A stretch of DNA of 64,000 bases from an uncultured Proteiniphilum sp. (GCA_964602395.1 CAZRRC010000007.1:181-64180), one strand, 5' to 3'. Counted from the first letter of the stretch, positions 10,767-43,149 are shown. Program-made: numbers and translations. The notes: generated by a model not told the origin, from the sequence alone.

Positions 10767-13517
10767 TTATTCAGATACCAGCATCAAGTTGCTCTCTTTC
10801 AGCCCCGGCGAAGTAGCCTTGATTGTGATGCTACCCGGTTTGCCTGCTTCACTTCTGACTATCACCAGGCATTGTCCGCTAAATGTCTCTCTTATGGAGG
10901 AAGGGAAAGGAGTCATGTCGGCCGGATTGCCGTTGTCGGTCGCCACAATCTCACCAGCTCCCTCAATTGTAAAATGAACGGGATAGACAGCATCTGGCAC
11001 AAGGAGTCCATTACGGTCGGTTACTTTTACGGTCACGAAAGCGAGATCATTTCCATCGTCAGCAATTGTTTTCCTGTCGGTTTCCAGTAGTAGTGACTCG
11101 GCTACATCCGTAGTTTGCACCACGTCCTCCGCCCATTTTTCACCATTTTTGTAGGCGATTGCCTTCAGTTCACCCGGTTCGTAACGGATGTCATCCCACC
11201 GGAGCCGGTATTCGAATTCACCCTTTTTCTTTCGTCCGAGCGACCTGCCATTCAGGAACAGTTCAGCCTCATCGCCGGAGGTAAAGAGATGTACCGGTGT
11301 GATCTGACCACTCCGGCAGGGCCAGTTCCAGTGGGGCAGGATATGCACCATGGGCAGCTCGGGCCGCCAGCGCGACTGGTAGAGATAGAAACGGTCTTTT
11401 TTGAATCCTGCCAGGTCGATGATGCCGCAGTAGGAGCTCCGTGCTGAATAGTAGGGGGTGGGCTCTCCCAGATGATCCCATCCCGTCCAGACGAATCCAC
11501 CGGCCACAAAGGGATGTTTGTCCTGCATCATGAATACTTTGTCGGGCGACGAGCCAAAGTCTACCGCATAGAGTTCGTAGGCGCTGACCTGTGCATTTTT
11601 TGCATCTCCTCCCTGGCCCTCCCGCACCGGAGAACTCATTTTCTCCGTAACAGGGAAAAGGTAGATCCCCCTGCTACTGAAGGAGGAAGCCACCTCGCTA
11701 CCAATAATTACCTTTTTGGGGAAGGTAGTGTGAAAATAATCATATTGGGGTGTCGTGCGGATCCGATCAGTTCCCTCAAATTCAGGCTCCTGTCGGATAC
11801 CCTCTCCCTGGTAGTTGAGACCGATCACATCGGGAACACGGGGGAAAGGCATATCCGGCTTGGCGTAGTTCAAGGAGAGGGTCGTGGGGCGTGTGGAGTC
11901 TTCCTCTTTGATAATCTCGTTTAGCCATTCTGCTATTGCTGCACCTTCTTCGTCGGTGTATTGTTCACCCACTTCGTTGCCATAGCTCCACATGATGATC
12001 GAGGGATGGTTTCTGTCGCGGCGTACGAAGGAGCGGGTGTCGGCTTCAGCCCATTCTGTAAAAATCAGGTGAAAGTCGTGCGGTGTCTTTTTCCTTTCCC
12101 AGGAATCGAAGATTTCGTTTACTACCAGGAATCCCATTCGGTCGGTCAGCTCCAGCAACTCCGGTGCAGGTGGGTTGTGGGCCATGCGGATGGCATTGCA
12201 TCCCATCTCCTGCAATAATTCAAGTTGACGTTCAGCGGCACGCCGGTTGAAGGCTGCACCCAGTGCACCCAGATCGTGATGCTGGTTCACCCCTTGGAGC
12301 CTGATGACTTCACCGTTCACCAGCACACCCCGTTGCGGATCTAATTGCAGATCACGGATGCCAAAGTTGGTTTCATAACGGTCGATTGTCCTGCCATTTT
12401 GCTGCAAGGTGGTGATGGCCTGGTAAAGGTGAGGTGTCTGGGAGGGCTTTGGCCCCCACAGTCTTGGGCTTCTTATCACTGTGGTGTGTTTGCTTTTACT
12501 GCTCTCCCCTGCATCAAGTGAAATTGTCGAAGTAGGAAAACGGGCAATGCTTTTTTTCCCTTTTATACCCAGGCTGTCTAGCTCATAGATCTCTGTTTCG
12601 ATCACGACTGTCACATCCGATTCCGATTCGTTGTCTACGTTTACTTCCAGGTCGACCGTTGCTGAGGATGCGGAGATCTCTCTCGCCGTCACAAAAGTTC
12701 CCCACTGACCCATGTGCACCGGGTGGGTTTTGATCAGCCAAACATTGCGGTAGATTCCAGCACCTGGGTACCAGCGGGAGGAGTGGTTGGGGTTGTCGAG
12801 GCGGATAGCCAGCTGGTTCTCTTTCCCATAGAGAATATAGGGTGTCAGATCGAGCCGCCAGGAATTATAACCATAGGGCCAACCGCCCACCAGGGTGCCG
12901 TTGAGCCAAACCATGGCATAGGACATGGCGCCCTCCACGTCAAGAAAAATGGAGCGTCCTTCGTCTGTAGCAGGAATGGAAATTTTCTTTCTGTACCAGG
13001 CCACACCCTGTACAGGGAGACGACCCATTCCACCACCCACTTCCGGATTGTCTCCTTCATAAAATGGACCTTTGATGGCCCAGTCGTGAGGCAAATCGAC
13101 CTTCTCCCAATTAGAGTCATCGAAATCATGTTGTACGAAAGGAAAATCTTTTCCAGGCGCTTCACCTTCGGGGCGGAGATAATGTTTTTCAGAATCTTTG
13201 ATAAAATGATTTGCCGTGGGCAGGATCCATGGCTTTAATACCGCTTCGGAAGAGCCCCTTTCAACCGCTTCTGTAGGTTTAGCATCTGCTATCAGATACT
13301 CCCGGGCCTCTTCAATGGCAGGCCGTACATCATAGTTGAGTGGGTCAATCTTTTCCGTTATATCGTATCTGTAAAAAGACCAACTATCGTTGAGAGAGAT
13401 CTTCTCCCGATCGATGGATCTTTTTTGTGGAATGAGGGAACAGGATCCAGTCAATACAGCAATAACAATTGTGAGCAGCGATCGCATTGTTATTCGGGCG
13501 AAAGAATGGGATGTCAT
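10767..13517 (-). CDS. GH2 glycoside hydrolase (beta-galactosidase-like), lipoprotein
   Basis: LPHDW, WYRK, FEG-like VEGAMSY, GVNQHHDLG, IRMAHNPP, WSYGNE (acid/base), IGSE (nucleophile), VWTGWDHLGEPTP; C-terminal DUF4982/Ig domains; lipobox LTGSC. Confidence 0.9.
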   Translation of the reverse strand: MTSHSFARITMRSLLTIVIAVLTGSCSLIPQKRSIDREKISLNDSWSFYRYDITEKIDPLNYDVRPAIEEAREYLIADAKPTEAVERGSSEAVLKPWILPTANHFIKDSEKHYLRPEGEAPGKDFPFVQHDFDDSNWEKVDLPHDWAIKGPFYEGDNPEVGGGMGRLPVQGVAWYRKKISIPATDEGRSIFLDVEGAMSYAMVWLNGTLVGGWPYGYNSWRLDLTPYILYGKENQLAIRLDNPNHSSRWYPGAGIYRNVWLIKTHPVHMGQWGTFVTAREISASSATVDLEVNVDNESESDVTVVIETEIYELDSLGIKGKKSIARFPTSTISLDAGESSKSKHTTVIRSPRLWGPKPSQTPHLYQAITTLQQNGRTIDRYETNFGIRDLQLDPQRGVLVNGEVIRLQGVNQHHDLGALGAAFNRRAAERQLELLQEMGCNAIRMAHNPPAPELLELTDRMGFLVVNEIFDSWERKKTPHDFHLIFTEWAEADTRSFVRRDRNHPSIIMWSYGNEVGEQYTDEEGAAIAEWLNEIIKEEDSTRPTTLSLNYAKPDMPFPRVPDVIGLNYQGEGIRQEPEFEGTDRIRTTPQYDYFHTTFPKKVIIGSEVASSFSSRGIYLFPVTEKMSSPVREGQGGDAKNAQVSAYELYAVDFGSSPDKVFMMQDKHPFVAGGFVWTGWDHLGEPTPYYSARSSYCGIIDLAGFKKDRFYLYQSRWRPELPMVHILPHWNWPCRSGQITPVHLFTSGDEAELFLNGRSLGRKKKGEFEYRLRWDDIRYEPGELKAIAYKNGEKWAEDVVQTTDVAESLLLETDRKTIADDGNDLAFVTVKVTDRNGLLVPDAVYPVHFTIEGAGEIVATDNGNPADMTPFPSSIRETFSGQCLVIVRSEAGKPGSITIKATSPGLKESNLMLVSE

Positions 13518-15136
13518 GATATTTTCAACAACAGGGAAATTTCATTTGGCATCTCCTCTTCCGGCAGTTCAACCATGAGTCCCTCGCTGTTTCTTTTAAA
13601 TTGAAGCACTTTATCACTTCCAACCAGCGACACTGAGTTGATCGCTCTTTCCATCAATGGATTTCCTTCCGACAGGGATCGAATAACCACCTTATTGTCT
13701 TCGGGGTGCGCCAGTATATGGGCATAGAGGTTGTCACCCTTGACCACAAAACGAATATCCGCCGAGGTGTAGGGAGCGTGTTTTCCTTCGTTAAAGCCCT
13801 GAGCTTGCAGAGGGTTGCTTGCTTCCGCCACGGGCCCTTCGCCAAAAATCTTCCAAGGACGTGTGCCGTAAACCCCTTCGCTGTTTACCGCCATCCAGGT
13901 TGCAATGTCTTCCAGTATCTTCCGTTCCTTGTCGTCTATCGTCCCGTCTCCTCTCTGCGGCACACTCAACAACAGATTGCCGTTTTTACTGATGATGTCA
14001 ATCAACATATGGACGACTGTTTTAGCCGATTTGTAACGGTCGTTGTCGTAATATGACTGGTTGTAATGCCACGATCCCAGGCAAGTGCATGTCTGCCATG
14101 GCTTCTCCTGTATCTGGTCGGGAACCCCTTTCTCCACATCCCAGACCAATGCATTCTTTTGTTCGTCGGACAAGATTTTAGCAAATACAACGGCTTTATT
14201 TTTACCTTTGTTCTCGCTCAAGCTTTTATTGTAAAAGTGAGCTACGGTACGCAAACCGGCATCACTCACAGGCCACAAAGGCATCGCTGTATCGTCGTAA
14301 TAAACCAGGTCGGGATTATACTGGTTGATCATATCCACCGTACGGTCAAAAAAATTCTGACTATATTCTTCCGAAGGAGGAAAAGCTCCATTTCCCCAGG
14401 CCCACTGGCCATGGATCGCGCTGTTGTCATGGCTCTCTTCACTCAACGGGTGGTCTTGTGCGTATAATTCCTGTGGATCATATCCGTTCCACCATTTCCC
14501 CCGGCCATCTTCTTTCGTCATTTTTCCGTCGTAGGGCACACCAGATAAGGGCCCTTCCTTGTCGGTGCGTTGTGCGGGTTCATACCAGCTCCAAGCATGT
14601 GCTGAATGAATGCTCACGCCAAAATACATCCCATATTTTCGTGCTACTTTTTCCCAGCCACCGACAATATCTTTTTCAGGTCCCATGTTTACTGCGTTCC
14701 ACTTGTGATGCCTGCTGTTCCAGTTATCAAAGTTGTCGTGATGATTGCCCAGGGAGAAAAAGTAGCGTGCTCCCGCGCGGTGGTACAGTTCCATTAATTC
14801 TTCGGGATTCCATTTGTCGGCCTTCCAGAGGTTGATTACATCCTTGAATCCAAATTCCGACGGATGCCCATAGTTTTCTACATGCCAGCGATAGATACGA
14901 CTCCCCTCCATATACATTTCCCGGGCGTACCAATCTCCTTGTCCGGGTTGACACTGTGGCCCCCAATGGGACCAGATTCCAAATTTGACATCCCGGAACC
15001 ATTCAGGTGCTTCTCCATACTGGGCAAGTGATTCCCATGTAGGTTCATAGATCCCTTCCATCATTTGCTCATGCTTTGGAGCACATGAAGTCAGGATTAA
15101 CCCTGATAATAAAATTGTAAAAAAACTGTTTTTCAT
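13514..15136 (-). CDS. GH29 alpha-L-fucosidase-family enzyme (possibly alpha-L-galactosidase), lipoprotein
   Basis: PEWFRDVKFGIWSHWG, HHDNFDNW, LVYYDD (nucleophile), WQTCT, DIISKNGNLLLSV; lipobox ILTSC. Confidence 0.9.
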   Translation of the reverse strand: MKNSFFTILLSGLILTSCAPKHEQMMEGIYEPTWESLAQYGEAPEWFRDVKFGIWSHWGPQCQPGQGDWYAREMYMEGSRIYRWHVENYGHPSEFGFKDVINLWKADKWNPEELMELYHRAGARYFFSLGNHHDNFDNWNSRHHKWNAVNMGPEKDIVGGWEKVARKYGMYFGVSIHSAHAWSWYEPAQRTDKEGPLSGVPYDGKMTKEDGRGKWWNGYDPQELYAQDHPLSEESHDNSAIHGQWAWGNGAFPPSEEYSQNFFDRTVDMINQYNPDLVYYDDTAMPLWPVSDAGLRTVAHFYNKSLSENKGKNKAVVFAKILSDEQKNALVWDVEKGVPDQIQEKPWQTCTCLGSWHYNQSYYDNDRYKSAKTVVHMLIDIISKNGNLLLSVPQRGDGTIDDKERKILEDIATWMAVNSEGVYGTRPWKIFGEGPVAEASNPLQAQGFNEGKHAPYTSADIRFVVKGDNLYAHILAHPEDNKVVIRSLSEGNPLMERAINSVSLVGSDKVLQFKRNSEGLMVELPEEEMPNEISLLLKIS

Positions 15137-15226
15137 TTTTTTATCCTTTTAATTGTTTTTCATTTCCGTAACGCTTTCCGTGCAACCTTACTGTGAGAGA
15201 AATACAAGCTATTGGTGGGGTGAGGG

Positions 15227-17707
15227 CTAAAACTTAATCACGATTTTCTGTCCTGTATAATCGACTACCCTGTCATACTTCTCAACTTTTTCCATTCCGT
15301 TCGCTCTGTTTTTTTCGACACGAAGAAGATGAAACTTTCTTTGTGTCAGCATACCTGGAAACGAACCATTGCGGCCACCGATCGTCAGCACTTTTTTTGC
15401 ATCATTCCAGGTAAACGTAATGGTTGAATAGATTCCTTTCTCGTAGTTGTAGTTGTCGTTTTCATCTTCATACAGGGTGAACTCCCCATCCGCACCTTCG
15501 TAAATCCTTATTTCCAGGTTGTCCCAGCTCTTCTCGGTGGCATATTGTACCTCAGGACCTATGGGAAGGATGGTTCCGGCTTTTATGTATAAGGGAATGA
15601 CATCAATGCTTGTTTCTTTTGAAATTTCCTTTCCACCTTCAAATCTTTCGTTCGTCCAGAAATCATACCATTCTGAACCTGTTGGAAGATAGAGGTCCGA
15701 GCTCTTTTTTGCAGTAAAGTCTACTTGCGCATCTTTTTTTATCCCTTCTCCATTTGTTCGTGTCCACCCTTCTTCTATGCTGGCATCTACAATTTTCTCG
15801 GGAGTATACTGTGCTTCTACTACTGGAGCAACCAGTATGGAATTGCCAAACATGAACTGGTGTTTAATGTCCCAGACATGCTTATCCTCTGCAAAATCCA
15901 TCGCCAGTGCGCGCATAAAACTTGATTGCTTATTGGTTACTTCCCATGCGGTAGAATAAATATAAGGCAACAGTGCATAACGTAAACGGATTGTACGTTC
16001 GATGGCATCATATATGGGCTCTCCTTTTTCCCCAAAATGATAAATCTCCCGTGAGAGATCAGTACCGTGAGAACGCATCATGGGGTTAAAAGCACCGAAT
16101 TGCATCCAGCGAACATACAATTCCTGAAACATTGGATTTCTGGATGCCGATCCGTCGTTCCATGACTTGTTGTAAGCACCTGCAAAAAAACCGCCAATAT
16201 CGCTGTTCCAGTGCGGGATGCCACACATGGAGAAATTAAGCCCTGCAGGAATTTGATTTCGAAAATTCTCCCACGACGTAAAGACGTCGCCCGACCATAC
16301 ATTGGCACCATAGCGTTGCTGACCGGCAAATCCCGATCGTGTGAGGATAAACACTCTCTTGTCGGAGGTAAGTGCCCGCTGATTATCGTAGACACCTCCT
16401 ACTGTTACCAGGGGATAGGCATTTCTCACCTTTCTGAAAGAGCCCATGGCAGTAGGTGTATCCATATCTGCCGGCTTGAAGCTTAAATGGTCCGGCTCTG
16501 TGGAGTCCATCCACCATCCGTCGATACCCAGTTTAAATAAGCCACTGTTGAGGTGATTCCAGTATATATCCCTTGCTTTAGGGTTGAAGGCATCATACAC
16601 GCGAACCCCCGAAGGATAATCCATGTTGGGTGGCCAGCTGGTGAGACCCGATTCGGGCCATGTGCTGAAATTGTATAACGCTCCAATTTCATCCAGTTTT
16701 CGGTACTGCTTTGTGGCAGGACCAAATGAAGACCAGATAGAAATGATCATGTGCGCATGCATATCATGGATCTCGTTTACCATCGCCTGCGGGTTGGGAA
16801 ACTCTTCGTTCAGAAATTCCATCGCATTCCACAAGTAGTTGCTGCCCCAGTATTGCCAGTCCTGAATGATCCCATCAAGCGGCACACCTAGCTCGCGGTA
16901 TTTTTTGACCACACCCACAGTTTCATTCTGACTTTTATAACGCTCTTTACTTTGCCAAAACCCATAGGTCCACAAAGGAAACATAGGAACCTGCCCGGTG
17001 AGGTCACGCATCTCCGCAATCACGCCATCGGCATCGCCTCCATACATAAAATAATAGTCGATGCATTCACCCACTTCAGAAAGAAAAGATGTTTCACCTG
17101 GATTGTCTGTAAAGGTGGTGGGCGAATAGTTGTCCCAGAAAAGGCCGTAACCTTTCACTGACTGGAAAAAAGTCACAAAATCCCAAGTGTTGTTTTGGAC
17201 CATCTGTACTTCCTGGTTGCGCTGAGACATCTTACCATTTTGAAGAATACCGAGACCGTAGATGGTTTCGTCCGGATCCAGCAGATAGGACTGCTTCACG
17301 CTATGGGTTTTTACTCCGGCATCGTCAAAGTCAGTGAAATTAGCACTGGCCTCTTTTTCAGTCAGGAGTAACTGCCCCTTTGTGTTTTTGAAAGTCACTT
17401 TTCCGCTTTGCAGATTCAAAGCTACTTCTACGCGTTTATTCTTTAACAGGAGTTCATCGCCTCTCTGTCTCGTTTTAAAAGTTACTTTTTCAGGTGTTTT
17501 GACAACGGACAAACTCTCTTTTTTTATATTTTTCCCTTCGGGTGATTTCACCACCCGCACAATGGATGGCCCGTAGAACTGGATCTCAATATCCATCGAT
17601 TTAACCTGAGCGCTCACTCCCTTTTCGGTATTTTTATACGATTGAGCAGAGCCTGGAGTTGAAAATAACATCAAAGCGCAAAGCGCGACAGCAATTTTTT
17701 TCATCAT
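15227..17707 (-). CDS. GH31 alpha-xylosidase-like glycoside hydrolase
   Basis: PMFPLWTYGFWQSKERY, DGIIQDWQYW, WWMDSTEP (nucleophile), WSGDV, WNSDIGGF (acid/base), C-terminal DUF5110. The signal peptide fits ATG 17707; the ORF-track start 17791 overlaps the neighbouring gene. Confidence 0.92.
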   Translation of the reverse strand: MMKKIAVALCALMLFSTPGSAQSYKNTEKGVSAQVKSMDIEIQFYGPSIVRVVKSPEGKNIKKESLSVVKTPEKVTFKTRQRGDELLLKNKRVEVALNLQSGKVTFKNTKGQLLLTEKEASANFTDFDDAGVKTHSVKQSYLLDPDETIYGLGILQNGKMSQRNQEVQMVQNNTWDFVTFFQSVKGYGLFWDNYSPTTFTDNPGETSFLSEVGECIDYYFMYGGDADGVIAEMRDLTGQVPMFPLWTYGFWQSKERYKSQNETVGVVKKYRELGVPLDGIIQDWQYWGSNYLWNAMEFLNEEFPNPQAMVNEIHDMHAHMIISIWSSFGPATKQYRKLDEIGALYNFSTWPESGLTSWPPNMDYPSGVRVYDAFNPKARDIYWNHLNSGLFKLGIDGWWMDSTEPDHLSFKPADMDTPTAMGSFRKVRNAYPLVTVGGVYDNQRALTSDKRVFILTRSGFAGQQRYGANVWSGDVFTSWENFRNQIPAGLNFSMCGIPHWNSDIGGFFAGAYNKSWNDGSASRNPMFQELYVRWMQFGAFNPMMRSHGTDLSREIYHFGEKGEPIYDAIERTIRLRYALLPYIYSTAWEVTNKQSSFMRALAMDFAEDKHVWDIKHQFMFGNSILVAPVVEAQYTPEKIVDASIEEGWTRTNGEGIKKDAQVDFTAKKSSDLYLPTGSEWYDFWTNERFEGGKEISKETSIDVIPLYIKAGTILPIGPEVQYATEKSWDNLEIRIYEGADGEFTLYEDENDNYNYEKGIYSTITFTWNDAKKVLTIGGRNGSFPGMLTQRKFHLLRVEKNRANGMEKVEKYDRVVDYTGQKIVIKF

Positions 17708-17769
17708 TTTATGGTATCTGTTTTTCAATGTTTGGTCTTTTATCAGTTCATTGCATCCAAGTAAAGGGT

Positions 17770-19140
17770 CTATTTTGAAAATTGCCACCAATCAAAATTG
17801 AATAGCTCTTTTTCTCCCCTGAAGACAAAATAAACATCATGCACTCCCTTCACCTTTTCCACCGGAGCGGAGAATGTCTTCCAAAAACCAGCTTCCCGCG
17901 AAGAATTTACGTCAACGGTGGCAATGAGAGGACCGTCTATTTTGTCGACATGGATTTCGATTTTCCCTCCGTTAACTGGTGAAATACTCACCTCGATCGA
18001 TTTTGCCCCGTTTGCAAAATCAACGCCTTTTACCAGCATATAGTCGCCATGGTTAATGGATGTTACATACAAATGATCGGCTATTTTCCTGCCCCTGTCC
18101 CAGTCGAAGTCGCCTTCCCATTCGGTTTCGAAGTGTGTTTTTAGGCCTTCACTCCAGGCCATCGTTTCCGCTTCAACCCGTTTAAAGGGGTTCAATGTTC
18201 CTACTTGTGCAGGACCTTCAACTGACCAGTAGCTGCGGTTTTGTATGGTTCCATCGGTGTGATACACCATTTCATCCATATCAACCGAACGTCGTTCATA
18301 AAATTTGCTTGTAGATTGTTTAAGGAGATCGTAACTATGTCCAAAACAATATGATTTTCCTTTGAATTCAATGATGCCAGGGTGATTTCCACGGGTTTTT
18401 TCCGAAGCATCCACAATCATCCCTTTATATTCCCATGCTCCCGTGGGTGAAGTACTCATGGCATAACCAATACCTTCAGGGCAGCAGGTGGAGGCATATG
18501 CCATGTAATAAATACCATTGCGTTTCCACACCCACGGTCCTTCCTGGTAGTTTGCAGGAGTGGTGGGATCTTGCATGATCTCACCCGAGTAGGAAATCAT
18601 ATCTTCGTTCAGTTTCACCCAATAGACCTGTGGATTACCCCAATACATATAGGCTTGCCCATCCTCGTCAATCAATATGGTTGGATCGATATCGTGGCTG
18701 CTGTTTTTGATCAAAGGCTTCCCAAGCGGGTCTTTAAAAGGACCATAAGGAGTGTCGGCCACCAAAACACCAATACCAACTCCGCCTGGCATGGGGCAAT
18801 AGAGATAAAATTTCCCGTTGCGTTCGACACACTGCACTGCCCAGGCACCGTTCTCATAAGGAACCCAGGCGAAGTCCTTCAACGAGGCAACCACCCCATG
18901 TTCGGTCCAGTTTACCATATCGGTGGATGAATACAGCAGCCAGTCTTGCATTTTGAAACCCATGGCATCGTCCTCGTCGTGCGATGTGTATAAAAACACG
19001 GTATCGTTATACACCATGGGCGCGGGGTCGGCGGTGAACTTGGTTTGGACGATGGGCTTTTGTGCTCTGACCGGGAGTGTAGCGACAACTGCTGCACCAA
19101 TAAAGAGAATTTTATAAAATGTGTTTTTGATTCCGTTCAT
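17770..19140 (-). CDS. GH43 (subfamily 29-like) arabinoxylan arabinofuranosidase/xylosidase + CBM6
   Basis: FTADPAP, AWAVQC, DIDPT, YQEGPW, GNHPG; C-terminal RVEAET...HDVYFVF..FNFDWWQF CBM6; signal peptide. Confidence 0.88.
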   Translation of the reverse strand: MNGIKNTFYKILFIGAAVVATLPVRAQKPIVQTKFTADPAPMVYNDTVFLYTSHDEDDAMGFKMQDWLLYSSTDMVNWTEHGVVASLKDFAWVPYENGAWAVQCVERNGKFYLYCPMPGGVGIGVLVADTPYGPFKDPLGKPLIKNSSHDIDPTILIDEDGQAYMYWGNPQVYWVKLNEDMISYSGEIMQDPTTPANYQEGPWVWKRNGIYYMAYASTCCPEGIGYAMSTSPTGAWEYKGMIVDASEKTRGNHPGIIEFKGKSYCFGHSYDLLKQSTSKFYERRSVDMDEMVYHTDGTIQNRSYWSVEGPAQVGTLNPFKRVEAETMAWSEGLKTHFETEWEGDFDWDRGRKIADHLYVTSINHGDYMLVKGVDFANGAKSIEVSISPVNGGKIEIHVDKIDGPLIATVDVNSSREAGFWKTFSAPVEKVKGVHDVYFVFRGEKELFNFDWWQFSK

Positions 19141-19172
19141 TGTACGCTATTTATTTATGAGCTTCGCTAACT

Positions 19173-21560
19173 TTATTGTTTCAGCAACCGAACAAAGTAT
19201 ACAGCCCCCGCGGTATTGCCGGGCAAGGACTGAAACCTGACTCTTATTTTTTCTTTTTCTTTTACCATCCTGTTAGGGATGACATAGGTCACATCAAAGA
19301 ACCTTGATTGGTTCCAGCGGCCAGTATTGTCTTCGGTCAACAACTTTTCATCATCGATGTAGATGTCAAATTTGCGACCTCCCCATTCAGCGCCCCAATA
19401 GCGCACCATAAGGCTGAGGCTGGTTTCTGAATTGGTCTTCATCTCATAGCTGAAATAACCCTCCTCCTTCGCATCGCGATAGAATTCGTTGTTGCTGTTG
19501 CCCGAGGTGGAATGTTCTTTTTCGATGACATGATCTGTTTCCGGTTGTTGTTCTCCGGTTGCCACAAAATCGACGGTGCGTTTTTCGATGGCAATCTTTT
19601 CTTGTTCGATTGCCGTCAGGGAGTCCTTGTAGGTGCTGAATCCCTTGTTTGTAAGTGCCAGCCAGTAGATCATATACCGGGAATCGTGTATTTTTGCGAA
19701 GGGCTCCAGTGTAATGTCCATCGGATTTTCCATTTTGGCACCCAGCTTGAAATGCATGGGCTTATCCTTTATCGGTACCAATTTGTCGGCGATATTTTGG
19801 ATCTCGTCTTCAACCAGGATGGGAGCCTGGTCGACAGGCAACATCTTCCCTCCCGGGTATTGTGCCCATCGCCCATCATCGGCAAGCAAACCGCTTAAAT
19901 CGTCGGTACCGGTTCTCGCACCCAATAAGATGGGACCGCGCATAAAAGCAATGTAATTGTCTACATTGGGCAGATGTACCACGCTGTTGTGCATAGGCAG
20001 CTCCACCTTCACCACATCTCCTTTTTCCCATCTCCTGTTGATACAGATGTAGGAGGAGGGGAGCGAAGCGTACTGAATTTCTCTCCCGTTCACGCTGACT
20101 TTCAAGGCTCCCTCTTTCACCCATTCGGGATAGCGGATCATAAAGGGAAAGCTCGATGATCCTTTTGTGACAGTAAGCGTTGTGCCTTCCTCGGATGGGA
20201 AATTTGTCTCCTGTCTGATGCTGATTTTTTTCTTCTTCCAGTTGAGCTCGGAGGCGATGAAGAGGTTCAGGAACAGTGAATCGCCAGAGTGGGTATAGAT
20301 AAACTGATTGTATTTACTGTGATTTTCCATGCCCGTGCCCACACAGCACCACATGGCATTGTTGGGGGTAGAATAAACCCGATAATGACGAGGACGTGCC
20401 GTGGTGAAATAAACATAACCTCCATGTCCCGGGTGTTGAGTTGACAGAATGTGGTTGAACAGTGTGCGTTCATAGTAATCGGCATAATGTGCCGACGGAC
20501 TCATGCGGAACAGATCTTCGGTCAATTTCAGCATGTTATAGGAGTTACAGGTCTCCGGACCGTCTACGTCATTGATATAATCGCCACAAGATGCAATGCC
20601 TGGAAAGTGTTCCCGGCGACTATTCCCTCCAAAAGCCAAAGTGCGGTTCTTCACAATAGTCTCCCAGGAGAAGCGTCCCGCGTTTTCATATGTTTTGTCG
20701 CCGCTCAGTTCCGCAATCCTGGTAAAGCCGATAAACTTGGGTATTTGCGTGTTGGCATGCTTGTTGTCAAGGTTGTCGATCCTCCGTGATAACGGTTCAA
20801 GAAACTGCTTGTGCGAGAATCTCCTGGCTGTCGCCAGATATTTCTCGTTGCCGGTTATCTGGTAAGCATCGGCAAAGATCTCGTTCATACCTCCGTGTTC
20901 CATGTTGAGCATCAATTGCATCTGCTCATCGGTAAGGGCAGCGGTAATATCGATACCCCAATCACAAAACTGTAAAAAGAGCGATTTAGCCTCTTCGTTG
21001 TTTGCATAAAGCCAGGCATCCCGTAGGCCGGCATACATTTTGTGCAGGTTGTAAAAGGGAGCCCATGCCGAGTGGTACAAGCCAAAGTCGCCTTTCCTGA
21101 ACGCCTGCCACAATGCCGAGCTGTTGGGAAACCCTCCGATGTAGCCGGTACCCCATTCCGCATTGTTCACCCCATTTGCCTCAAGGCAGATCTTCAGTTC
21201 CGAAATCATCTGTTCCATCCTCTTTTTGCAGGTTGCATTACTGGTAGCCGCATAGTTGATTGCCATGGCAGAGAGGTAGTGGCCTGCTATATGACCGTCC
21301 AGACCCTCCCAATTGGGATAACTCATTGCCTTCTGCGGCAGACCGGCTACTTTGCGATAGGGTGCCAGTAAGCGATCCACGTCGTACTGTAAAAGGACCT
21401 GCAAGTTTAGATCACGTGCATCTTTGAATGGCCCCTGGAGCAGCGTTACATCCGATACTGGAAATTCGTTGTCGTATAATTTCTCCTGTGCTTGTACGAA
21501 TCCCAAACAGATAAAAAGAGAAAGAAGCAACGTGACATTTATTCTTATCATTCTCTCCAA
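19173..21560 (-). CDS. GH146/GH127-type beta-L-arabinofuranosidase (DUF1680)
   Basis: GHIAGHYLSA, EHGGMNE, HANTQIPK, ETCNSYNMLK (about 20541-20555) and WCCVGTG (about 20340) Zn/Cys active-site motifs; C-terminal DUF6805-like domain as in BT0349-type GH146; signal peptide. Confidence 0.85.
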   Translation of the reverse strand: MERMIRINVTLLLSLFICLGFVQAQEKLYDNEFPVSDVTLLQGPFKDARDLNLQVLLQYDVDRLLAPYRKVAGLPQKAMSYPNWEGLDGHIAGHYLSAMAINYAATSNATCKKRMEQMISELKICLEANGVNNAEWGTGYIGGFPNSSALWQAFRKGDFGLYHSAWAPFYNLHKMYAGLRDAWLYANNEEAKSLFLQFCDWGIDITAALTDEQMQLMLNMEHGGMNEIFADAYQITGNEKYLATARRFSHKQFLEPLSRRIDNLDNKHANTQIPKFIGFTRIAELSGDKTYENAGRFSWETIVKNRTLAFGGNSRREHFPGIASCGDYINDVDGPETCNSYNMLKLTEDLFRMSPSAHYADYYERTLFNHILSTQHPGHGGYVYFTTARPRHYRVYSTPNNAMWCCVGTGMENHSKYNQFIYTHSGDSLFLNLFIASELNWKKKKISIRQETNFPSEEGTTLTVTKGSSSFPFMIRYPEWVKEGALKVSVNGREIQYASLPSSYICINRRWEKGDVVKVELPMHNSVVHLPNVDNYIAFMRGPILLGARTGTDDLSGLLADDGRWAQYPGGKMLPVDQAPILVEDEIQNIADKLVPIKDKPMHFKLGAKMENPMDITLEPFAKIHDSRYMIYWLALTNKGFSTYKDSLTAIEQEKIAIEKRTVDFVATGEQQPETDHVIEKEHSTSGNSNNEFYRDAKEEGYFSYEMKTNSETSLSLMVRYWGAEWGGRKFDIYIDDEKLLTEDNTGRWNQSRFFDVTYVIPNRMVKEKEKIRVRFQSLPGNTAGAVYFVRLLKQ

Positions 21561-21648
21561 TTTTAATGAATGTTTGCTTCCTGCTTTTCAACCATTTGCG
21601 AATAAAGAATTGTGGGGTTACTCACAACAGGATGAACCGGGAAATGCT

Positions 21649-23595
21649 TTATTGTTTGATAACTAATCCGCCCTTTGGCTGGAGTATGACGGTCATCTTG
21701 CCGTCTTGATTGATTTTGCTGCTGGTGACAAGTGCCTCCCGATCGCTGTTGTCGGAATAGATATTCACTTTTTTCCCTGCAACCATGGGCAGGTTAAGCT
21801 CCAGCTCCAGCGGCTGTTCCAAGGCATTCACCCCGGCAACGTACCATTGTTCCCCGTGGCGACGGGCGATTACCGTATACTTGCCTGGATAGCCGTCAAT
21901 ATACAATGTTTCATCCCAGGTGGTGGGGATCTCTTTCATAAAGCTGATCAGCGATGCAGGTGTGTCAGTCAGGTTGTTGGGTGTCAGTGCAAACATCTGC
22001 ACCGGGTTTTGAAAGAGGATGCTGGTAGCAATCTGAAATACATCAGTGGTAAGTCGTTGTTGTCCTCTGTTGTTTCCCTTGTTGAGGAATTTATTCATAA
22101 AGACCCCTCCGAACTCCATGCTGCCTACGGTGTTGCGGATAAAAGGGTGCAAGGTGGCGTAAAAAGCTTCCTTCTCTCGCACATCCTGCGAGAAAATCAA
22201 CATTTCGGAAGCGAGAACTGCCTCGCTACCCACAAAGTTGGGGTACATCCGTTCCCATCCTCGTGGAAGGGTGCAGCCGTGGAAGATGATCATCAGTCCG
22301 TAGTCATTGGCATCGGAGAGAATATCTTCGTAAAAACGCATGGTCTCTTGCTTGTCGCCACCGAAGAAATCGACTTTCAGGCCCTTAACTCCCACTTTTT
22401 TCAGCCATTTCATCTCCTCTTTTCTAGCGATGGAGGTGCTAATCCTGTTTCTGGGCCCTTGCGGCGCATCATTGAAGCCTCCGTTGGAGTTATACCAAAG
22501 GAACACGTCTACATTCTTAGAATGGGCATACTGGATCAGTTCCTCCATCTTCTCGTAACCGATGTTGGAATCCCACAAAGCGTCTATCAGAATATATTCG
22601 TATCCCATTTCAGCCGCCAGGTCGATGTATCTCACCTGATCGTCCCAGTTCATGCTCTGGTCCTGCCAGACAATCCAGCTCCAGGTGCCCCTGCCATATT
22701 GATACTCCTGCGACGCTTTGTAAAGAGGCTCCACCAGGTCGAACGGGATAGTGGTCTCCACGATGGGTTTAAGGCTGTTCCCCACCGTGATGGTGCGCCA
22801 TGGAGTCACGCCGGGGAGCGGGATTTGTGCCCCGCTACTTCCAAATCCGTTGTTTTGTCTCATATCTGGATATTCAACCCTGTATAAGCCCTCTTTTGTA
22901 CCATCGCTCAGGTGGGAGGCACAGTACTGACTGGTTACGCCGGTTTCGGAGATCAGTGCCCAGCCGTCGTCCCCGACGCGAAAGAGGGCGGGAAAGACAT
23001 ATCCCAGCTGGCCATGGGTTGGTTTACCCACCGGTTCGTCGTTGGTGTAACCACTTTCATAGCTGGGGGAGGTCCTGGCAAAGGCACCCATAGCCCCCAT
23101 CATCGGGGAGAGAAAGGTCGTCGTAAATTCTGGGAACTTGAATCCAGTTATTTCTTTTTCTACTACGCACGCCTTCCTTTCACCCCAGTGAGGTAGCTCA
23201 TAACGGAATGCCACGTCGTTGTTGCTTACCTGGAAAACGATGTCCAGTCCTCGTTGCTTGTTATCTTCAAAGGAACAAATTAGCTTGTTGGCCTGATAGT
23301 GCACAGCCGAATGTTTGATTTTTTCCTGTGTGTAGCTTTTATCCACTGATGAGGTTGAAGAATTTTTGAATATCAGGCTTCTACTGAAATCCCCTTCGTT
23401 GGTAATTATTCCCAGGGGTGACTTTTCCAGGATGGTTTTGCCGGCATACTCCACGGCGTAAAACGGTTGACCCTCTTCGAGGTAGAGTCGAAGATGAACC
23501 TCTCCGTCAGGGCTGGTTAGTGTGGCTACCTGTGCCGTCAGAATATGTGTGGTGAGCACGAAAAGAACGGTGAGGCTAAGAAAAAGATATTTCAT
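21649..23595 (-). CDS. GH97 glycoside hydrolase (retaining alpha-galactosidase-type)
   Basis: SNNDVAFRY, TPWRTI, WSW, YILIDALW, GLKVDFF (Asp nucleophile of retaining GH97), FHGC, PTTWDET; signal peptide. Confidence 0.9.
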   Translation of the reverse strand: MKYLFLSLTVLFVLTTHILTAQVATLTSPDGEVHLRLYLEEGQPFYAVEYAGKTILEKSPLGIITNEGDFSRSLIFKNSSTSSVDKSYTQEKIKHSAVHYQANKLICSFEDNKQRGLDIVFQVSNNDVAFRYELPHWGERKACVVEKEITGFKFPEFTTTFLSPMMGAMGAFARTSPSYESGYTNDEPVGKPTHGQLGYVFPALFRVGDDGWALISETGVTSQYCASHLSDGTKEGLYRVEYPDMRQNNGFGSSGAQIPLPGVTPWRTITVGNSLKPIVETTIPFDLVEPLYKASQEYQYGRGTWSWIVWQDQSMNWDDQVRYIDLAAEMGYEYILIDALWDSNIGYEKMEELIQYAHSKNVDVFLWYNSNGGFNDAPQGPRNRISTSIARKEEMKWLKKVGVKGLKVDFFGGDKQETMRFYEDILSDANDYGLMIIFHGCTLPRGWERMYPNFVGSEAVLASEMLIFSQDVREKEAFYATLHPFIRNTVGSMEFGGVFMNKFLNKGNNRGQQRLTTDVFQIATSILFQNPVQMFALTPNNLTDTPASLISFMKEIPTTWDETLYIDGYPGKYTVIARRHGEQWYVAGVNALEQPLELELNLPMVAGKKVNIYSDNSDREALVTSSKINQDGKMTVILQPKGGLVIKQ

Positions 23596-23622
23596 GATCG
23601 ATTTGTTTTGTTTAGTTTTGTC

Positions 23623-25011
23623 TTAATTAGCGAACTTCCAGTAGTCGAAATACATCAGGTGACTTTTCGGATTCCCCCTGACAACAAAATAGAGATCATG
23701 TAGGCCCGTCACATTTGGTATATCTACGGTGACCAGCGCCCAGCGGTCACTTCCACCCGTGCGGGGAATGCGCATCGAGGCGATCTTTTCTCCCTCGGAG
23801 CTTCCCAGTCTTACTTCAAGGGTAACAGGGTCGTTGTGGGTGGTACCCACGCGTGCGGTAAATTTTATGGCTCCTTTCTTTTGGAAATCGACATCACGTA
23901 CTTTGATGTAGCTGCCATCCTTGTTGGCCGTCACAAATACCCCTACCTGGTCGTTTTGCGACGACTTGAACCCTTCGGAAAAGGCGATGGTTTCGGCCTG
24001 GTTCAACAGATAAGGATTCAGGGTAGTCAATCCCTGTTTGATTCCTTCGGTCATGTTCAGTTGTGGAATGGTGCCATCTGGGTTGAACCGGAGTTCTTCC
24101 ACCGCCACAGAACGGGTGAAGCCACCACCGCCTGGCAAGGCGCCGTTGTGATAGAAGAAGTAGGTCTTTCCACGAAAGTCGATGACCCCCGGATGGTTGG
24201 TGAATGCCTTTCCCTGTGCGGGCATCACCACGCCACCGTACTTCCAGGGTCCTTCTGGACTCCGACTGGTAGAATAGCCGATGTGTTCCGGCAGAGGACC
24301 ACCCGGCCAGAAGAGGTAGTAGAGATTATTTCTCTTGTAGAGCCAGGGTCCTTCCTCATAGAGGGTGCTACGCTGCGGATCTCCCTCTCTTTTCCCAAAT
24401 GACTCCTCCGTAAGGGGTACTTTCTCGATAGCCCCCTCAAATGAGATCATGTCTTCGTTCAGCTTCACATAATAGAGGTTGGGATTTCCCCAGTAAAGAT
24501 AGGCCTGCCCATCGTCATCGATGAAGACGGTGGGGTCGATATCTCCCCATTCGGTCTGTGCCAGCGGTTTTCCCAGTGGATCATAAAAAGGTCCCAGGGG
24601 AGTGTCGGCCACCGCCACACCAATAGCGCCCCGGTTATTTTCTCTCGAGATCATCGGCACATACATATAAAACTTGCCATTCCGCTCAATACACTGTGCT
24701 GCCCAGGCATCCCCTTTGGCCCATTCGAAGTCGCTGTATGAAAGAATCACTCCGTGGTCCGTCCAGTTGACCATGTCGTTGGTTGAGTATACCCGCCAGT
24801 CGTCCATGGTGAACCAGGTAGATGCGTCTGCATCGTGGGTGGTATAGAGGTAGAGCCGGTCGTTCCACACCATGGGGGCCGGATCGGCGGTATAGATTGT
24901 TTGGATGATTGGATTCTGTGCCATCGTGGGTTCAACGGCTACCAGCCGCGACAGAATAAGCAATAAAAGGAAGAAATAGGTACGTTTTGAAATAAAGTGA
25001 TTTATTTGCAT
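23623..25011 (-). CDS. GH43 (subfamily 29-like) + CBM6
   Basis: YTADPAP, DAWAAQC, DIDPT, YEEGPW, TNHPG; C-terminal CBM6 (NQAET...HDLYFV...FDYWKF); signal peptide. Confidence 0.9.
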
Positions 25012-28159: not shown

Positions 28160-31100
28160 TCACAGCTTGGATGGAGATTTTCCGAAATGAGCCTTAAAAG
28201 CGGCACTAAAGTATTTTACACTCGAGAATCCGCACAATTCACTCACTTCAGTAATGGTGTACTTCCCCGACTGGATGAGTTTGAGTGCATGATTCAACCG
28301 GATGCTCTTAATGAAGTCGATCGGAGAGAGGTCGGTCAACGATTTGATCTTTTTATAAAGCAATGAGGAGCTGACATTCATCTCCGAAGCAAAGGTATCT
28401 TTATTAAATAGTTCATTGTCCATATGTGCATGCACCACACTCACCGCTTTCTTGACAAACTGATCGTCGAGTTCATTCAGATAAATGGATTCGCTCTCAT
28501 CTTCGTCGATGAGCCGGAGTGCTTTTTCTCTGACAATCTTCCTGTTTTGGATGATATTGGATATGCGTTGATGGAGTAAAGTCATATCGAATGGCTTGGT
28601 TAGATAATCATCAGCACCCAAACCCAGTCCGTGTAATTGTTGTGATTTCTCATTTAAGGCTGTCAGCAGAATGACCGGTATATGGGCTGTTTCAAACGTG
28701 GACTTGATGAGCCGGCACAATTCAAAACCATCCATATGGGGCATCATGATATCCGAGATAACCACATCGGGGATTTTAGTTTGTATCATATTCCAGGCTT
28801 CGACCCCATCTTTTGCAGTGATAATTTTGTATTTGCTCTGCAGTGACTGTTGGAGGAACACTTTTAAGTCTTCGTTGTCTTCCACAATGAGGAGATGCTC
28901 ACTCTTGTCGTTCTCCTGTGTATTTGCAAGAGTTGGTTCCTCCATGGCGCTGGTGAGTGATAGCGGAGACACATTCTGGGGTACCGTACCGGATAATCGG
29001 GGAGAGGAGATGGGTACCTCTTTATAGGGTATGGTGATGCGGAAAAGAGAACCTTCATTCTCCCTGCTCTCCAATGATACGGAACCACCGTGCATGGACA
29101 CATAATTCTTCACCAGAAGCAGGCCGATCCCTGAACCCACGATGGTGGAATTGACTGCGTTGTCGCCCCTGTAGAACTCTCTAAAGAGCTTCCTACTGGC
29201 ATTTTCGGAAATACCCAGACCATGATCCCGCACCGTCAGTATCCATTTGTGGGCATCGCAGGTCAGATCAATTTCAATCTTTCCCCCGGGATGCGAATAT
29301 TTAATGGCATTGGATATCAGATTGTCGGTCACTTTCTCAATTTTCAGTTCATCCACAGCAGTCACATAGGACTCCCGGTTGGAGGTAAACCGAAGCTTCA
29401 TGTCATTTTTTCTTGCAGCAGCCTCAAACATCGATTTCCGTTGGCTGATAATTTTTACCACATCGGCCATCACAAAAAACACCTGCCCTTTTCCAATATC
29501 AACTTTTTGAAAATCGAGAAGCTGATTGGCCACATAGGAAAGACGTGAGGACTGTTCCGTGGCCAGATTGAGATAGTAACGACCATCGACTGAGAGTGCT
29601 TTTTCCTTGTGCAGCTCCTCAATAGGAGCGTTAATCAGGGTGAGAGAAGTGCGGATGTCGTGCGCCATATTGGTGAAAAAGCGGATCTTATCTTCTGCAT
29701 GGTGTTGCTTGATGCGGTTGATGTAGAAGTGTAGTGTGAAAGCCAGTATACCCACACCCAATGTAAATAATATCAGACGGAACCAAAATGTGTTCCACCA
29801 GGGAGGGGTAATGTGAATCTGTAAGGATCGCTCGTTGATAATCTGTTTCAGTGTGCTGTCGTACATCCTGATTTTCAGCGAATAGTTTCCGCTGGGCATA
29901 CTTGCGTAAGTTATTGCGCGTAAATTGGCCGGCTCTGTCCATGCATCGTCAATACCTTCCATTTTCCAGGAGAATTTGGAGTAGAGGGAGGTTGTGCCGA
30001 TAGGCAGAAATTCAAGTGTCAGGGTATTCTGATCATATTTCAGTGATATATTTTGTAATTCATCCAGCGGTGAATTGATCGAAATAAGGGGGTTATTCCG
30101 CAGTGTCCGACCAGAGATCACGATATCCTGAAAAAAAATTCTCCCCGTAGAAGAGGAAAGAAGCACCGCATCAGGCTCGAACATGAGCGCCCCCCTGCTG
30201 GTACCCCATATCTGTTGTCCGTTTGTAAGCTTAATGGAAGAATTCTGGTTGAATGAGACGTTGAAATAGTGGGGAAGTGAGGAGAATACCATCACATTCT
30301 TCTCCTCGATATCGAATTTGCAGAGACCCGATTCGGTACCCAGCCATAGATATTTTCCTTCTCTGAGGATGCTGTTTACATAGTTTGAAGGCAAACCATC
30401 CCCGGTGGTAAACTTTTCAGTCGAGTTGTCTCTCAGATTGTATCGCAACAGACCATCGCCTGACGTGGCCATCCATACATCATCCCCAATGATGACCAGA
30501 TCATAGAGGAGGTAACCATCTAGAATTGTACGTGTCTCGCCAGATTGCTTGTCCATCAAGGACAATCCGTACGTACAGGCCAGCAGGAGGTTGCCAGGGG
30601 AGTGTTCTGCAAATGCATAGACCGGCTGAAAAGGATATGCAACAAAGCGTTTTTCACTTTCAACATAACGAAAAATTTGTCCCAGCGGGCTTCCCATCCA
30701 GAGATTACCGAGACTGTCTTTAAAAATATCAAAGATAAAATCGTTGGTTAGGTTGGAATTGGATATGTCACTGGCATAATGAGCGATTTCCCTGCCCGTT
30801 TTCCCGTCGATGATATAGACTCCCGACGAATAGGTGCCTGCCCAGATATTTCCATTGCGGTCTTCACACAGGGAGAGAAAAACCTGAGCCTGATCCTGCA
30901 GGTTTTGATAATAGGTGTGCCAGCTGTCGGTGGCGACGTTCCAACAGCTCACACCGTTATTGGTTGCAAACCAAATATTTCCTCTGCTGTCTTCTAACAC
31001 TTTGTTTACATCGTCGTTACCCAGTGAGTTGGGGTGATTGATCTGATGGGTGATTAGTGAGACATCGGCCAATCTCTGATCAAAATAAGATAATCCCCCG

Positions 31101-32047: not shown

Positions 32048-32145
32048 TCGCAATTTCATTCTTGTGCACAGGCGATCAATTATCCGGAAGCTCTTATGAC
32101 TCATTTTCGGAGATAAACCTATGCAGATGGTCCACAAGCAGACTT

Positions 32146-32153
32146 CAAAGATA
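32146..32153 (-). promoter_or_regulatory. -7 promoter element (TATCTTTG) for the HTCS gene
   Basis: Exact TAnnTTTG about 90-100 bp upstream of the likely ATG, with a TTG element 21 nt upstream as a possible -33. Confidence 0.6.
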
Positions 32154-32223
32154 ATAAAATTTGTCAAAGCATCACAACAATGAACTAATTCATTGGAGTC
32201 ACAGGCTTCCGGATATCATTCGC

Positions 32224-43113: not shown

Positions 43114-43149
43114 ACTATTAAAAGCGGCTTTGTGCAAACTATACAGAGT

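Follow-up and report, generated by a model that had tools for sequence, protein, structure and literature searches.

Seven intact, tightly packed genes occupy positions 10767-25011, end to end on the minus strand, of the 64-kb window (the whole stretch of DNA analysed), which belongs to a complex-xylan PUL of more than 64 kb in the genome of a Proteiniphilum-like digester bacterium of the Bacteroidales (a metagenome-type assembly). In the order of transcription they encode a GH43 enzyme with a CBM6 (copy A, 23623..25011; PF04616, 4e-55; CBM6, 1e-22), a GH97 with three GH97 Pfam domains (GH97_2, 21649..23595), a GH146 (19173..21560; PF07944, 5e-104, plus GH127M, DUF4986 and DUF6805), a second GH43-CBM6 (copy B, 17770..19140), a GH31 (GH31_2, 15227..17791), an alpha-L-fucosidase-like GH29 lipoprotein (13514..15136; PF01120, 3e-87) and a predicted GalB-type GH2 lipoprotein (10767..13517; NCBIfam NF041463). 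ORF calling and Pfam searches (E-values of 1e-43 to 1e-104 for the block genes) returned complete ORFs separated by -22 to 90 bp, bearing out the seven-gene accessory block described in the first-pass annotation. Export signals were found on all seven proteins: five SPI-type signal peptides, including one read at the N-terminus of copy A (both GH43-CBM6 copies are secreted), and two lipoprotein signals, with the lipoboxes LILTSC in GH29 and LTGSC in GH2. The true start of GH31_2 is likely residue 29/30, and GH146 likely starts at the Met at residue 4. The GC content is 0.445-0.48 over copy B, GH31_2 and GH29 and about 0.50-0.52 in the flanking genes. A scan for promoters and terminators yielded no operon boundaries. 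Gene order is kept in congeners, the core from copy A through GH97_2 and GH146 to copy B being conserved and the GH31_2/GH29/GH2 part variable.

Xylan-specific genes flank the block on both sides with gaps of no more than 90 bp, in agreement with the xylan-locus setting first assigned to it. Upstream are tandem SusC/D pairs, GH10, GH5, GH8, GH43 beta-xylosidases, CE6, GH95, GH3 and an HTCS; downstream are CE15, an MFS transporter, GH10, GH43 and GH67. A CE1-type esterase (25069-26235, minus strand) and a GH43 beta-xylosidase (26243-28084, minus strand), both assigned by Pfam, belong to the same gene string as the block, and are among the commonest neighbours of xylan-type GH146 genes in other genomes. 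The HTCS (hybrid two-component sensor; 28160..32167, minus strand, by Pfam) is the sole regulator found in the window, and its orthologues (80–88%) hold the same position in relatives. Farther upstream, a core side-chain trio on the minus strand, again recognised by Pfam, comprises GH95 of the alpha-L-galactosidase type (36117-38543), GH97_1 (38554-40473) and GH31_1 (40486-43137); GH95 scored 1012 bits against 4ufc and conserves Thr370, Asn372 and Asn374. The locus thus holds the gene set of a PUL-XylL-type system, i.e. SusC/D pairs, an HTCS, an endo-xylanase and GH31, GH97 and L-galactosidase-type GH95 together.

The second copies of GH31, GH97 and GH43-CBM6 noted earlier are real but deeply diverged (32–42% identity). 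Copies A and B of GH43-CBM6 are 42% identical. Copy A scored 763 bits against PDB 8hcj ('xylan 1,4-beta-xylosidase'), the next matches being 4nov and 3qed, and is probably a GH43_29-type side-chain beta-xylosidase/alpha-L-arabinofuranosidase; the tentative GH43_29 label is consistent with these nearest structures and with Ccel_1231 and Ccel_1235 of the xyl-doc cluster, for which a GH43_29-CBM6 architecture has been described. Orthologues of copy A (78–90%) occupy the same position in relatives, where those of copy B (78–90%) directly follow GH146; other families contain copy B orthologues at 63–84%. GH97_2 shares 32% identity with GH97_1 and 58% with the GH97 encoded at the arabinan locus of this genome. 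Its best structural match was PDB 5xfm (854 bits), then BT1871 alpha-galactosidase structures, and its best NCBIfam family was 'retaining alpha-galactosidase', with a score below the cut-off of that family; it is a putative retaining alpha-galactosidase/beta-L-arabinopyranosidase. GH31_2 shares 38% identity with GH31_1 and 44% with the BoGH31A orthologue found elsewhere in the genome. Xyloglucan alpha-xylosidases are longer proteins, which GH31_2 matches in the catalytic part only (552–562 bits). GH31_2 appears to be alpha-xylosidase-like, and its orthologues at 54–85% identity are in xylan-type loci.

The beta-L-arabinofuranosidase-type enzyme is supported as a GH146 rather than a GH127, since it scored 673 bits against BT0349 (5opj) and no more than 88 bits against GH127 structures, and has the domain architecture of BT0349; it scored 201 bits against 8k7x. 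Its Pfam domains (PF07944, PF20736, PF16375 and PF20620) follow the four-domain plan of BT0349, with a catalytic barrel, a middle domain, a beta-sandwich and a C-terminal jelly roll. Translation and alignment located the ETC motif at residues 336-338 (20547..20555, minus strand) and the CC motif at residues 405-406 (20343..20348, minus strand), both intact, as had been reported from the first reading. With Bll3HypBA1 as the alignment reference (PMC10850190), Glu336, Cys338, Cys405, Cys406 and Glu317 align to E723, C725, C804, C805 and E694, which would make Cys405 the nucleophile, Glu317 the acid/base and Glu336, Cys338 and Cys406 zinc ligands; the Cys3-Glu zinc site, the Cys nucleophile and the Glu acid/base are all in place. 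The enzyme keeps each of the 13 residues known from catalysis and the active site, and the subsite residues W84, W166, Y170, E221, H268, N270, T271 and Y384 are retained, including all those defined by mutagenesis in the characterised GH146 beta-L-arabinofuranosidases BT0349 (BtGH146) and Bll3HypBA1 (8k7x). The enzyme differs from these two in clade-specific substitutions adjoining catalytic residues (Arg315, which is two residues ahead of the acid/base, Tyr162, Asn266, Phe310 and Ala402) and in its genomic context, which is that of xylan and not of arabinan, RG-I or AGP.

The block GH146 was rejected as the BT0349 orthologue. The true orthologue is a paralogue in the genome's arabinan locus (contig C21; 947 bits to BT0349), among GH51, AraA and ribulokinase genes, and belongs to another clade. 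A tree of 99 GH146 proteins separated a Bacteroidota-wide block-type clade (83 proteins) from a BT0349-type clade (16 proteins) with SH-like support of 100. Among loci of at least 10 kb, xylan-type neighbours were present at 58 of 68 block-type loci and at 1 of 16 BT0349-clade loci. The block-type neighbours were CE1 (34/67), GH43-CBM6 (28/67), GH43 beta-xylosidase types (25/67), a CE6 fusion (21/67) and GH10/GH8/GH67/GH5 (13/67), and each such class was found at 0–1 of 15 BT0349-type loci. A set of 80 loci was picked by similarity to the query, near-relatives and short contigs included, and since neighbours were annotated by probing with proteins from the window alone, loci scored as marker-free may be under-annotated. 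When Bacteroidales were sampled evenly, xylan markers were present at 6 of 6 block-type loci and 0 of 10 BT0349-type loci. In many families of Bacteroidota, genes for CE1, CE6, beta-xylosidase, GH95, GH10, GH8 and GH67 are repeatedly found next to members of this GH146 clade, GH31_2 orthologues and the GH43-CBM6 types, a conserved, clade-specific association with xylan-type loci across the phylum that is absent from the BT0349-type GH146 clade. A set of GH146, GH31_2, GH29 and GH2 also recurs in other families and in xylan-type PULs, of which G156:C3 is an example; its GH29 and GH2 members are non-orthologous. A literature search found no report of expression or activity for the organism or for members of the xylan-type GH146 clade. 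The near restriction of this lineage to xylan clusters hints at a beta-L-arabinofuranose decoration of xylan that is absent from textbooks. Beta-L-arabinofuranose is barely documented in xylans, with one leaf arabinoxylan cited in PMC10850190.

GH29 belongs to its family by Pfam and by its nucleophile Asp281, which aligns to Asp264 of BpGH29, its best solved match (284 bits, a moderate match in two pieces). BpGH29 is the exo-alpha-L-galactosidase of a Bacteroides plebeius porphyran PUL (PDB 7ljj/7lk7), and its Asp327 fixes O6 of L-galactose (PMC9774334). The block enzyme keeps the nucleophile Asp and the O4-binding His, but Glu80 is changed to Asp and Asp327 to Cys350 (PWQTDTS in BpGH29 aligns to PWQTCTC), and Cys350 is invariant in all orthologues at 49–89% identity. 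With the O6-binding Asp replaced, GH29 was rejected as a BpGH29-type exo-alpha-L-galactosidase. GH29 enzymes with BpGH29-like motifs are found in xylan loci of other taxa, not in this one. Orthologues at 53–63% identity in other families are in pectin-like or orphan contexts, neighbours of GH29 orthologues including GH28, pectate lyase, GH78, GH35 and BT0349-type GH146, and an L-galactosidase-type GH95 with the conserved Thr370 is already present in the PUL core. The activity on L-galactose first proposed for GH29 is therefore weakened. GH2 scored 1495 bits against the GalB family NF041463 (cut-off 900; profile positions 1–869 of 869) and 591 bits against B. uniformis GH2A (5t98), and is best read as an ordinary GalB-type beta-galactosidase.

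Taken together, the block probably serves as an accessory debranching module in a locus for the use of complex heteroxylan of the glucuronoarabinoxylan type. The earlier proposal that it serves xylan side chains thus stands as regards xylan use, as opposed to a stray pectin cassette, and is weakened as regards L-galactose removal by GH29. We infer the cellular location, the order of action and all substrate linkages as follows. The seven enzymes would most likely be periplasmic, acting on decorated xylo-oligosaccharides imported via the tandem SusC/D pairs. GH146 would take off terminal beta-L-arabinofuranose caps, GH97_2 alpha-D-galactose or beta-L-arabinopyranose, GH31_2 alpha-D-xylose and GH2 beta-D-galactose, while GH29 may remove an alpha-L-fucose-configured cap, either L-fucose or possibly L-galactose. 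To our knowledge, L-fucose is not among the known xylan sugars. The stubs of beta-xylose and alpha-arabinofuranose thereby exposed could be cleared by the two GH43-CBM6 enzymes, and the beta-xylosidases of the locus and GH67 would then finish the backbone. The block may be co-regulated by the single HTCS.

It is unlikely that the block is instead a cassette from arabinan/AGP loci, devoted to side chains of pectic arabinan, AGP or RG that are bound to xylan or extracted along with it, and with no part in handling the xylan decorations themselves. The substrates of all characterised GH146 enzymes known to us are arabinan, AGP or of the extensin type, the genome's arabinan locus also pairs GH146 with GH97, and both the pectin-type neighbours of GH29 orthologues and the GC dip over copy B, GH31_2 and GH29 would suit such an origin. 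However, the HTCS gene is equally low in GC, and the block-type GH146 genes form a clade distinct from the arabinan one and almost never lie beside GH51/AraA-type arabinan genes without xylan genes. Their association with xylan genes spans many families, which marks it as ancient and conserved and not as the product of a local insertion.

Among the closest relatives of GH31_2, GH2 and GH29 with solved structures are xyloglucan-active enzymes (xyloglucan alpha-xylosidases, B. uniformis GH2A and a GH29 group with xyloglucan-active fucosidases), which counts against a role on xylan. The block might accordingly strip xyloglucan-type side chains, as a module carried in a xylan locus for co-occurring hemicellulose fragments: the adjacent GH31_2, GH29 and GH2 correspond exactly to the three linkages of the Fuc-Gal-Xyl ('F') chain, and GH146 and the GH43s would act on the beta-Araf-alpha-Araf-Xyl ('T'/'S') chains of arabinoxyloglucans, Araf-beta1,3-Araf being documented in that of tomato. 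We regard this as improbable, since a canonical xyloglucan locus is present elsewhere in the genome (contig C5), with HTCS, GH31, GH2, SusC/D, BACON-GH5 and GH43. The C5 GH31 scored 1411 bits against BoGH31A, whereas GH31_2 scored only 552 bits against 5jou, and identity to the C5 enzymes is only 44% for GH31_2 and 42% for GH2. The marks of a XyGUL (a BoGH31A-type alpha-xylosidase, BACON-GH5 and SusC/D) are found on C5 and not in the window, among whose ORFs no endo-xyloglucanase-type gene was recognised. The true orthologues of BT0349 and BoGH31A reside in separate arabinan and xyloglucan loci, and the neighbours of the GH146/GH31_2 lineages across phyla are feruloyl/acetyl esterases, beta-xylosidases, GH10, GH8 and GH67. 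There is also little to recommend the view that the duplicates serve mainly as redundant isozymes of GH31_1, GH97_1 and GH95 in the core, differing in kinetics or location and not in linkage. The locus does hold these families in duplicate, complex xylan is a heterogeneous material, and PUL-XylL has multiple GH43s with overlapping activity, but the paralogues are only 32–42% identical, every one of them represents a distinct orthologue group conserved across families, and the core has no counterparts of GH146, GH29 and GH2.

As a probable debranching module for heteroxylan, the block joins enzymes of this sort already published from complex xylan PULs (PMC4491172, PMC8040265, PMC6556953). PUL-XylL of B. 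ovatus (BACOVA_03417-03450; Rogowski et al. 2015, PMC4491172), which encodes a GH31, a GH97 and a GH95 active on corn xylan, is likewise a large complex-xylan PUL with tandem SusC/D pairs, an HTCS, GH43 arabinofuranosidases, GH43-CBM6 enzymes, GH3, esterases and a GH31 alpha-xylosidase adjoining a GH97 alpha-galactosidase, together with a GH95 alpha-L-galactosidase. As described, it lacks GH146, GH29 and GH2 as well as the second GH31, GH97 and GH43-CBM6 set, but has GH115 and GH98 and GH30 surface xylanases; neither GH98 nor GH30 was found among the ORFs of the window. Dysgonomonas mossii, of the same family (Dysgonomonadaceae), has a 39-gene predicted complex-GAX PUL (PUL 17, HMPREF9456_02254-02292; Kmezik et al. 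2021, PMC8040265) for which GH8, GH10, GH43, GH67, CE1, CE6 and GH146 are listed; its characterisation covered esterases only, and GH146 was grouped under alpha-L-arabinofuranosidases. The xyl-doc cluster of Ruminiclostridium cellulolyticum (Ccel_1229-1242), induced by straw and arabinoxylan (PMC6556953), belongs to a Firmicute with secreted, dockerin-bearing cellulosomal enzymes rather than a periplasmic Sus-like system. It includes a COG3533 (GH127/146-type) module fused to a xylan-binding CBM22, GH27, GH59, GH2, GH95, CE1 and CE6, of which COG3533, GH2, GH27 and GH95 are uncharacterised, and two GH43_29-CBM6 enzymes that release mainly xylose from arabinoxylan (PMC6556953). Its functional set nearly equals that of the block, with GH27 in place of GH97 and GH95 in place of GH29.

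The 64-kb window is a single minus-strand string of genes from a 2.9-Mb assembly in 197 contigs. When its 30 large ORFs were all scanned against Pfam, they gave, in order of transcription, two SusC/SusD pairs, a DUF5627 surface protein, GH10 with CBM4_9, GH5, GH43, GH8, a protein with a C-terminal CE6/SASA esterase, GH31, GH97, GH95, GH3 with CBM6, a hybrid two-component sensor (HTCS), a GH43 beta-xylosidase and a CE1-type esterase, then the seven genes treated here (GH43A-CBM6, GH97_2, GH146, GH43B-CBM6, GH31_2, GH29 and GH2), followed by a DUF1593-CE15 fusion, a SASA esterase, an MFS transporter, GH10, GH43 and GH67. The seven-gene block described in the first-pass annotation was confirmed: it fills 10767–25011 exactly, with all genes intact and intergenic gaps of -22 to 90 bp. 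SPI-like signal peptides are predicted on five of the block proteins and putative lipoboxes on GH29 and GH2.

The GH146 protein (19173–21560) scored 673 bits against BT0349 (PDB 5opj), the GH146 of an arabinan PUL, 201 bits against Bll3HypBA1, another characterised GH146, and at most 88 bits against GH127 structures; its Pfam domain set is that of BT0349. In an alignment anchored on the published Bll3HypBA1 residues (PMC10850190), it keeps the residues that bind zinc, the nucleophilic Cys and the acid/base Glu, as well as all eight subsite residues known from mutagenesis or pointed out for BT0349. It is not the orthologue of BT0349. The true BT0349 orthologue in this genome is a second GH146 (947 bits to BT0349) on contig C21 (L010:1557-19273), whose neighbours, namely three GH51-type genes, ribulokinase, AraA, GH97 and a double GH43, mark an arabinan locus. 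The GH97 of that locus is 58% identical to GH97_2, so that GH146 and GH97 are paired in both an arabinan and a xylan locus.

Two sets of loci, 80 from species-representative genomes and 20 from 200 evenly sampled Bacteroidales genomes, were annotated by tblastn, using the window proteins and the arabinan-locus proteins as probes. A FastTree phylogeny of 99 GH146 proteins separated, with SH-like support of 100, a window-type clade of 83 from a BT0349-type clade of 16. According to the sequence records, the window-type clade includes members from Dysgonomonadaceae, Prolixibacteraceae, Marinilabiliaceae, rumen Bacteroidales, Chitinophagaceae, Pedobacter, Leeuwenhoekiella and Cytophagales, and the active-site residues are conserved in 82–83 of its 83 proteins. 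At six positions (162, 266, 291, 310, 315 and 402), this clade is at least 90% conserved for a residue other than the BT0349-type consensus. Several of these positions lie 2–4 positions from catalytic or subsite residues; Arg315 (NSRREHF; Val in the BT0349-type) is two residues before the acid/base Glu, and Tyr162, Asn266 and Ala402 are likewise beside catalytic residues. GH146 genes 66–83% identical were also found on MAG contigs named Candidatus Paceibacterota, Bacillota, Butyrivibrio, candidate division KSB1 and Smithella (L012, L014, L015, L026 and L081), some of which also bear block neighbours. The GH146 protein of L012 is identical to that of a Bacteroidales MAG contig (L011), and mis-binning of Bacteroidota contigs seems to explain all five.

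In loci of at least 10 kb, CE1 genes accompany 34 of 67 window-type and 0 of 15 BT0349-type GH146 genes, GH43-CBM6 genes 28/67 and 1/15, GH43 beta-xylosidase types 25/67 and 1/15, CE6 fusions 21/67 and 0/15, GH31_2 orthologues 16/67 and 1/15, any GH29 16/67 and 0/15, and GH10/GH8/GH67/GH5 genes 13/67 and 0/15, respectively. Within the evenly drawn sample, xylan markers were present at all 6 loci with a GH146 at least 58% identical to the window gene and at none of the 10 BT0349-type loci. Congeners retain a core of GH43A-GH97_2-GH146-GH43B, with GH31_2, GH29 and GH2 variably present: genome G006 has the same block order without GH2, G024 has the core genes only, and G020 has additional GH43 genes and two different tandem GH29 genes. 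The combination of GH146, GH31_2, GH29 and GH2 is found again in other families, where the GH29 and GH2 are not orthologues of the window genes (L030, L049 and L150). Extension of one such locus (G156:C3) placed it within a xylan-type PUL that also encodes CE1, GH95, GH43 beta-xylosidase types, two GH43-CBM6 proteins and an HTCS.

Regarding the other block enzymes, GH97_2 scored 854 bits against PDB 5xfm, which we take to be BT3661, with the retaining alpha-galactosidase BT1871 as the next match. GH2 is above the curated NCBIfam cut-off for beta-galactosidase GalB, its nearest structure being B. uniformis GH2A; in the same database GH146, GH97 and GH31 had sub-threshold matches only, and no family was found for GH29 or GH43B. 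GH43A-CBM6 scored 763 bits against a structure deposited as a xylan 1,4-beta-xylosidase, and the clostridial GH43_29-CBM6 enzymes of the xyl-doc cluster release chiefly xylose from arabinoxylan (PMC6556953). Identities within the paralogue pairs are 32% for GH97 (the core copy at 38554–40473), 38% for GH31 (core copy at 40486–43137) and 42% for GH43-CBM6; the pairs are therefore old, and recent tandem duplication was ruled out as the source of the second copies.

Two other substrates were considered for the block. Xyloglucan-type side chains would suit its gene content, as GH31_2-GH29-GH2 fits a Fuc-Gal-Xyl chain and GH146 with GH43 fits arabinosylated chains. GH31_2 matches xyloglucan alpha-xylosidases over the catalytic part only. 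Its score to BoGH31A is 552 bits, however, whereas a GH31 (955 aa) encoded on contig C5 scored 1411 bits. This gene belongs to a canonical xyloglucan utilisation locus at approximately 21.6–43.4 kb of C5 (L157:1639-18927 and L158:3-3413), together with an HTCS, GH2, SusC, SusD, two proteins without a Pfam match, BACON-BACON-GH5 and a GH43 with GH43_C2, and because of it we consider xyloglucan the less probable substrate. Action on pectic or AGP side chains draws some support from the contexts of the GH29 orthologues, since those 53–63% identical, from other Bacteroidales families, lie outside xylan loci, either as orphans or adjoining GH28, pectate lyase, GH78, GH35 and BT0349-type GH146 genes; it is weakened by the separation of the two GH146 clades and by the conserved xylan neighbourhood.

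The first-pass interpretation is supported in part: the block is likely an accessory xylan side-chain module, but the idea that the GH29 acts on L-galactose is not supported. The best solved match of the GH29 is BpGH29, an exo-alpha-L-galactosidase (284 bits), the nearest alpha-L-glucosidase-like structure scoring far below it. In BpGH29, Asp327 fixes O6 of L-galactose (PMC9774334). The corresponding residue is Cys350 in the window protein and Cys in every orthologue of 49–89% identity, and an L-galactosidase-type GH95 (36117–38543), which retains Thr370 and scored 1012 bits against the alpha-L-galactosidase of B. ovatus, is already present in the PUL core. Together with the non-xylan contexts of the orthologues, both points speak against an L-galactose preference, which has no positive support for this gene. 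In other xylan loci there are GH29s of other types, bearing Glu or Asp at the O6-facing position and in some cases BpGH29-like in both motifs examined, so a GH29 role is recurrent there. The tandem GH29 genes of G020, a member of the same genus (L001:2951-6563), lie between GH31_2 and GH2; one is of the window type (89% identity, PWQTCTC) and the other, 42% identical, has Glu at this position (FQTETS). At locus L016 the FQTETS type fills the slot alone.

In B. ovatus PUL-XylL, GH31, GH97 and GH95 are established xylan debranching enzymes (PMC4491172), and GH146 is among the genes listed, by prediction only, for D. mossii PUL17 (PMC8040265). In R. cellulolyticum, the xyl-doc cluster, which is induced by straw and by arabinoxylan, contains two GH43_29-CBM6 genes together with GH27, GH59, GH2, GH95 and a COG3533 module that is fused to CBM22 (PMC6556953). 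Araf-beta1,3-Araf termini are on record for tomato arabinoxyloglucan and for a single leaf arabinoxylan (PMC10850190). Our literature search found no paper characterising a GH146 from a xylan locus, and no GH146 or GH29 in the B. intestinalis work on complex arabinoxylan. The useful outcome here is the delineation of the xylan-PUL GH146 clade and of the recurrent GH146/GH31/GH29/GH2 set, both bench-testable. We suggest, very tentatively, that window-type GH146 might be a dedicated 'xylan' beta-L-arabinofuranosidase. In concert with GH31_2 and with one GH29 and one GH2 enzyme, it would dismantle an undescribed oligomeric side chain that has a beta-L-Araf cap and includes alpha-Xyl, beta-Gal and a sugar of L-Fuc or L-Gal configuration. 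This chain would be frequent enough in natural heteroxylans for the enzyme set to have been retained in a clostridial xylan cluster and in the xylan PULs of many Bacteroidota.

Among hemicelluloses, the complex xylans of cereals (corn, sorghum and rice bran) resist degradation most, whether in feed, in biogas and biofuel production or in dietary fibre, and to our knowledge their rarer side chains are incompletely catalogued. If the clade removes beta-L-arabinofuranose from xylan oligosaccharides, a new linkage in xylan structure and a missing activity for enzyme cocktails would be gained; should it be inactive on xylan, the locus would simply be a further large xylan PUL that has additional exo-glycosidases. 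The comparison offers a concrete target, a separate and widespread clade whose active site is intact and in which clade-specific residues adjoin the acid/base.

A promoter and terminator consensus scan was uninformative, as counts did not exceed the shuffled expectation and the consensus does not cover Bacteroidota promoters. The TTG starts listed for GH31_2 (15227–17791) and GH146 look over-extended, since the signal peptides start at Met29/30 and Met4, respectively; with the corrected GH31_2 start, the apparent 22-bp overlap of GH43B and GH31_2 vanishes. GH43B, GH31_2 and GH29 (13514–19140) have a GC content of 0.445–0.476, versus 0.50–0.52 in the adjoining genes, and that of the HTCS region (28160–32167) is just as low (approximately 0.445).
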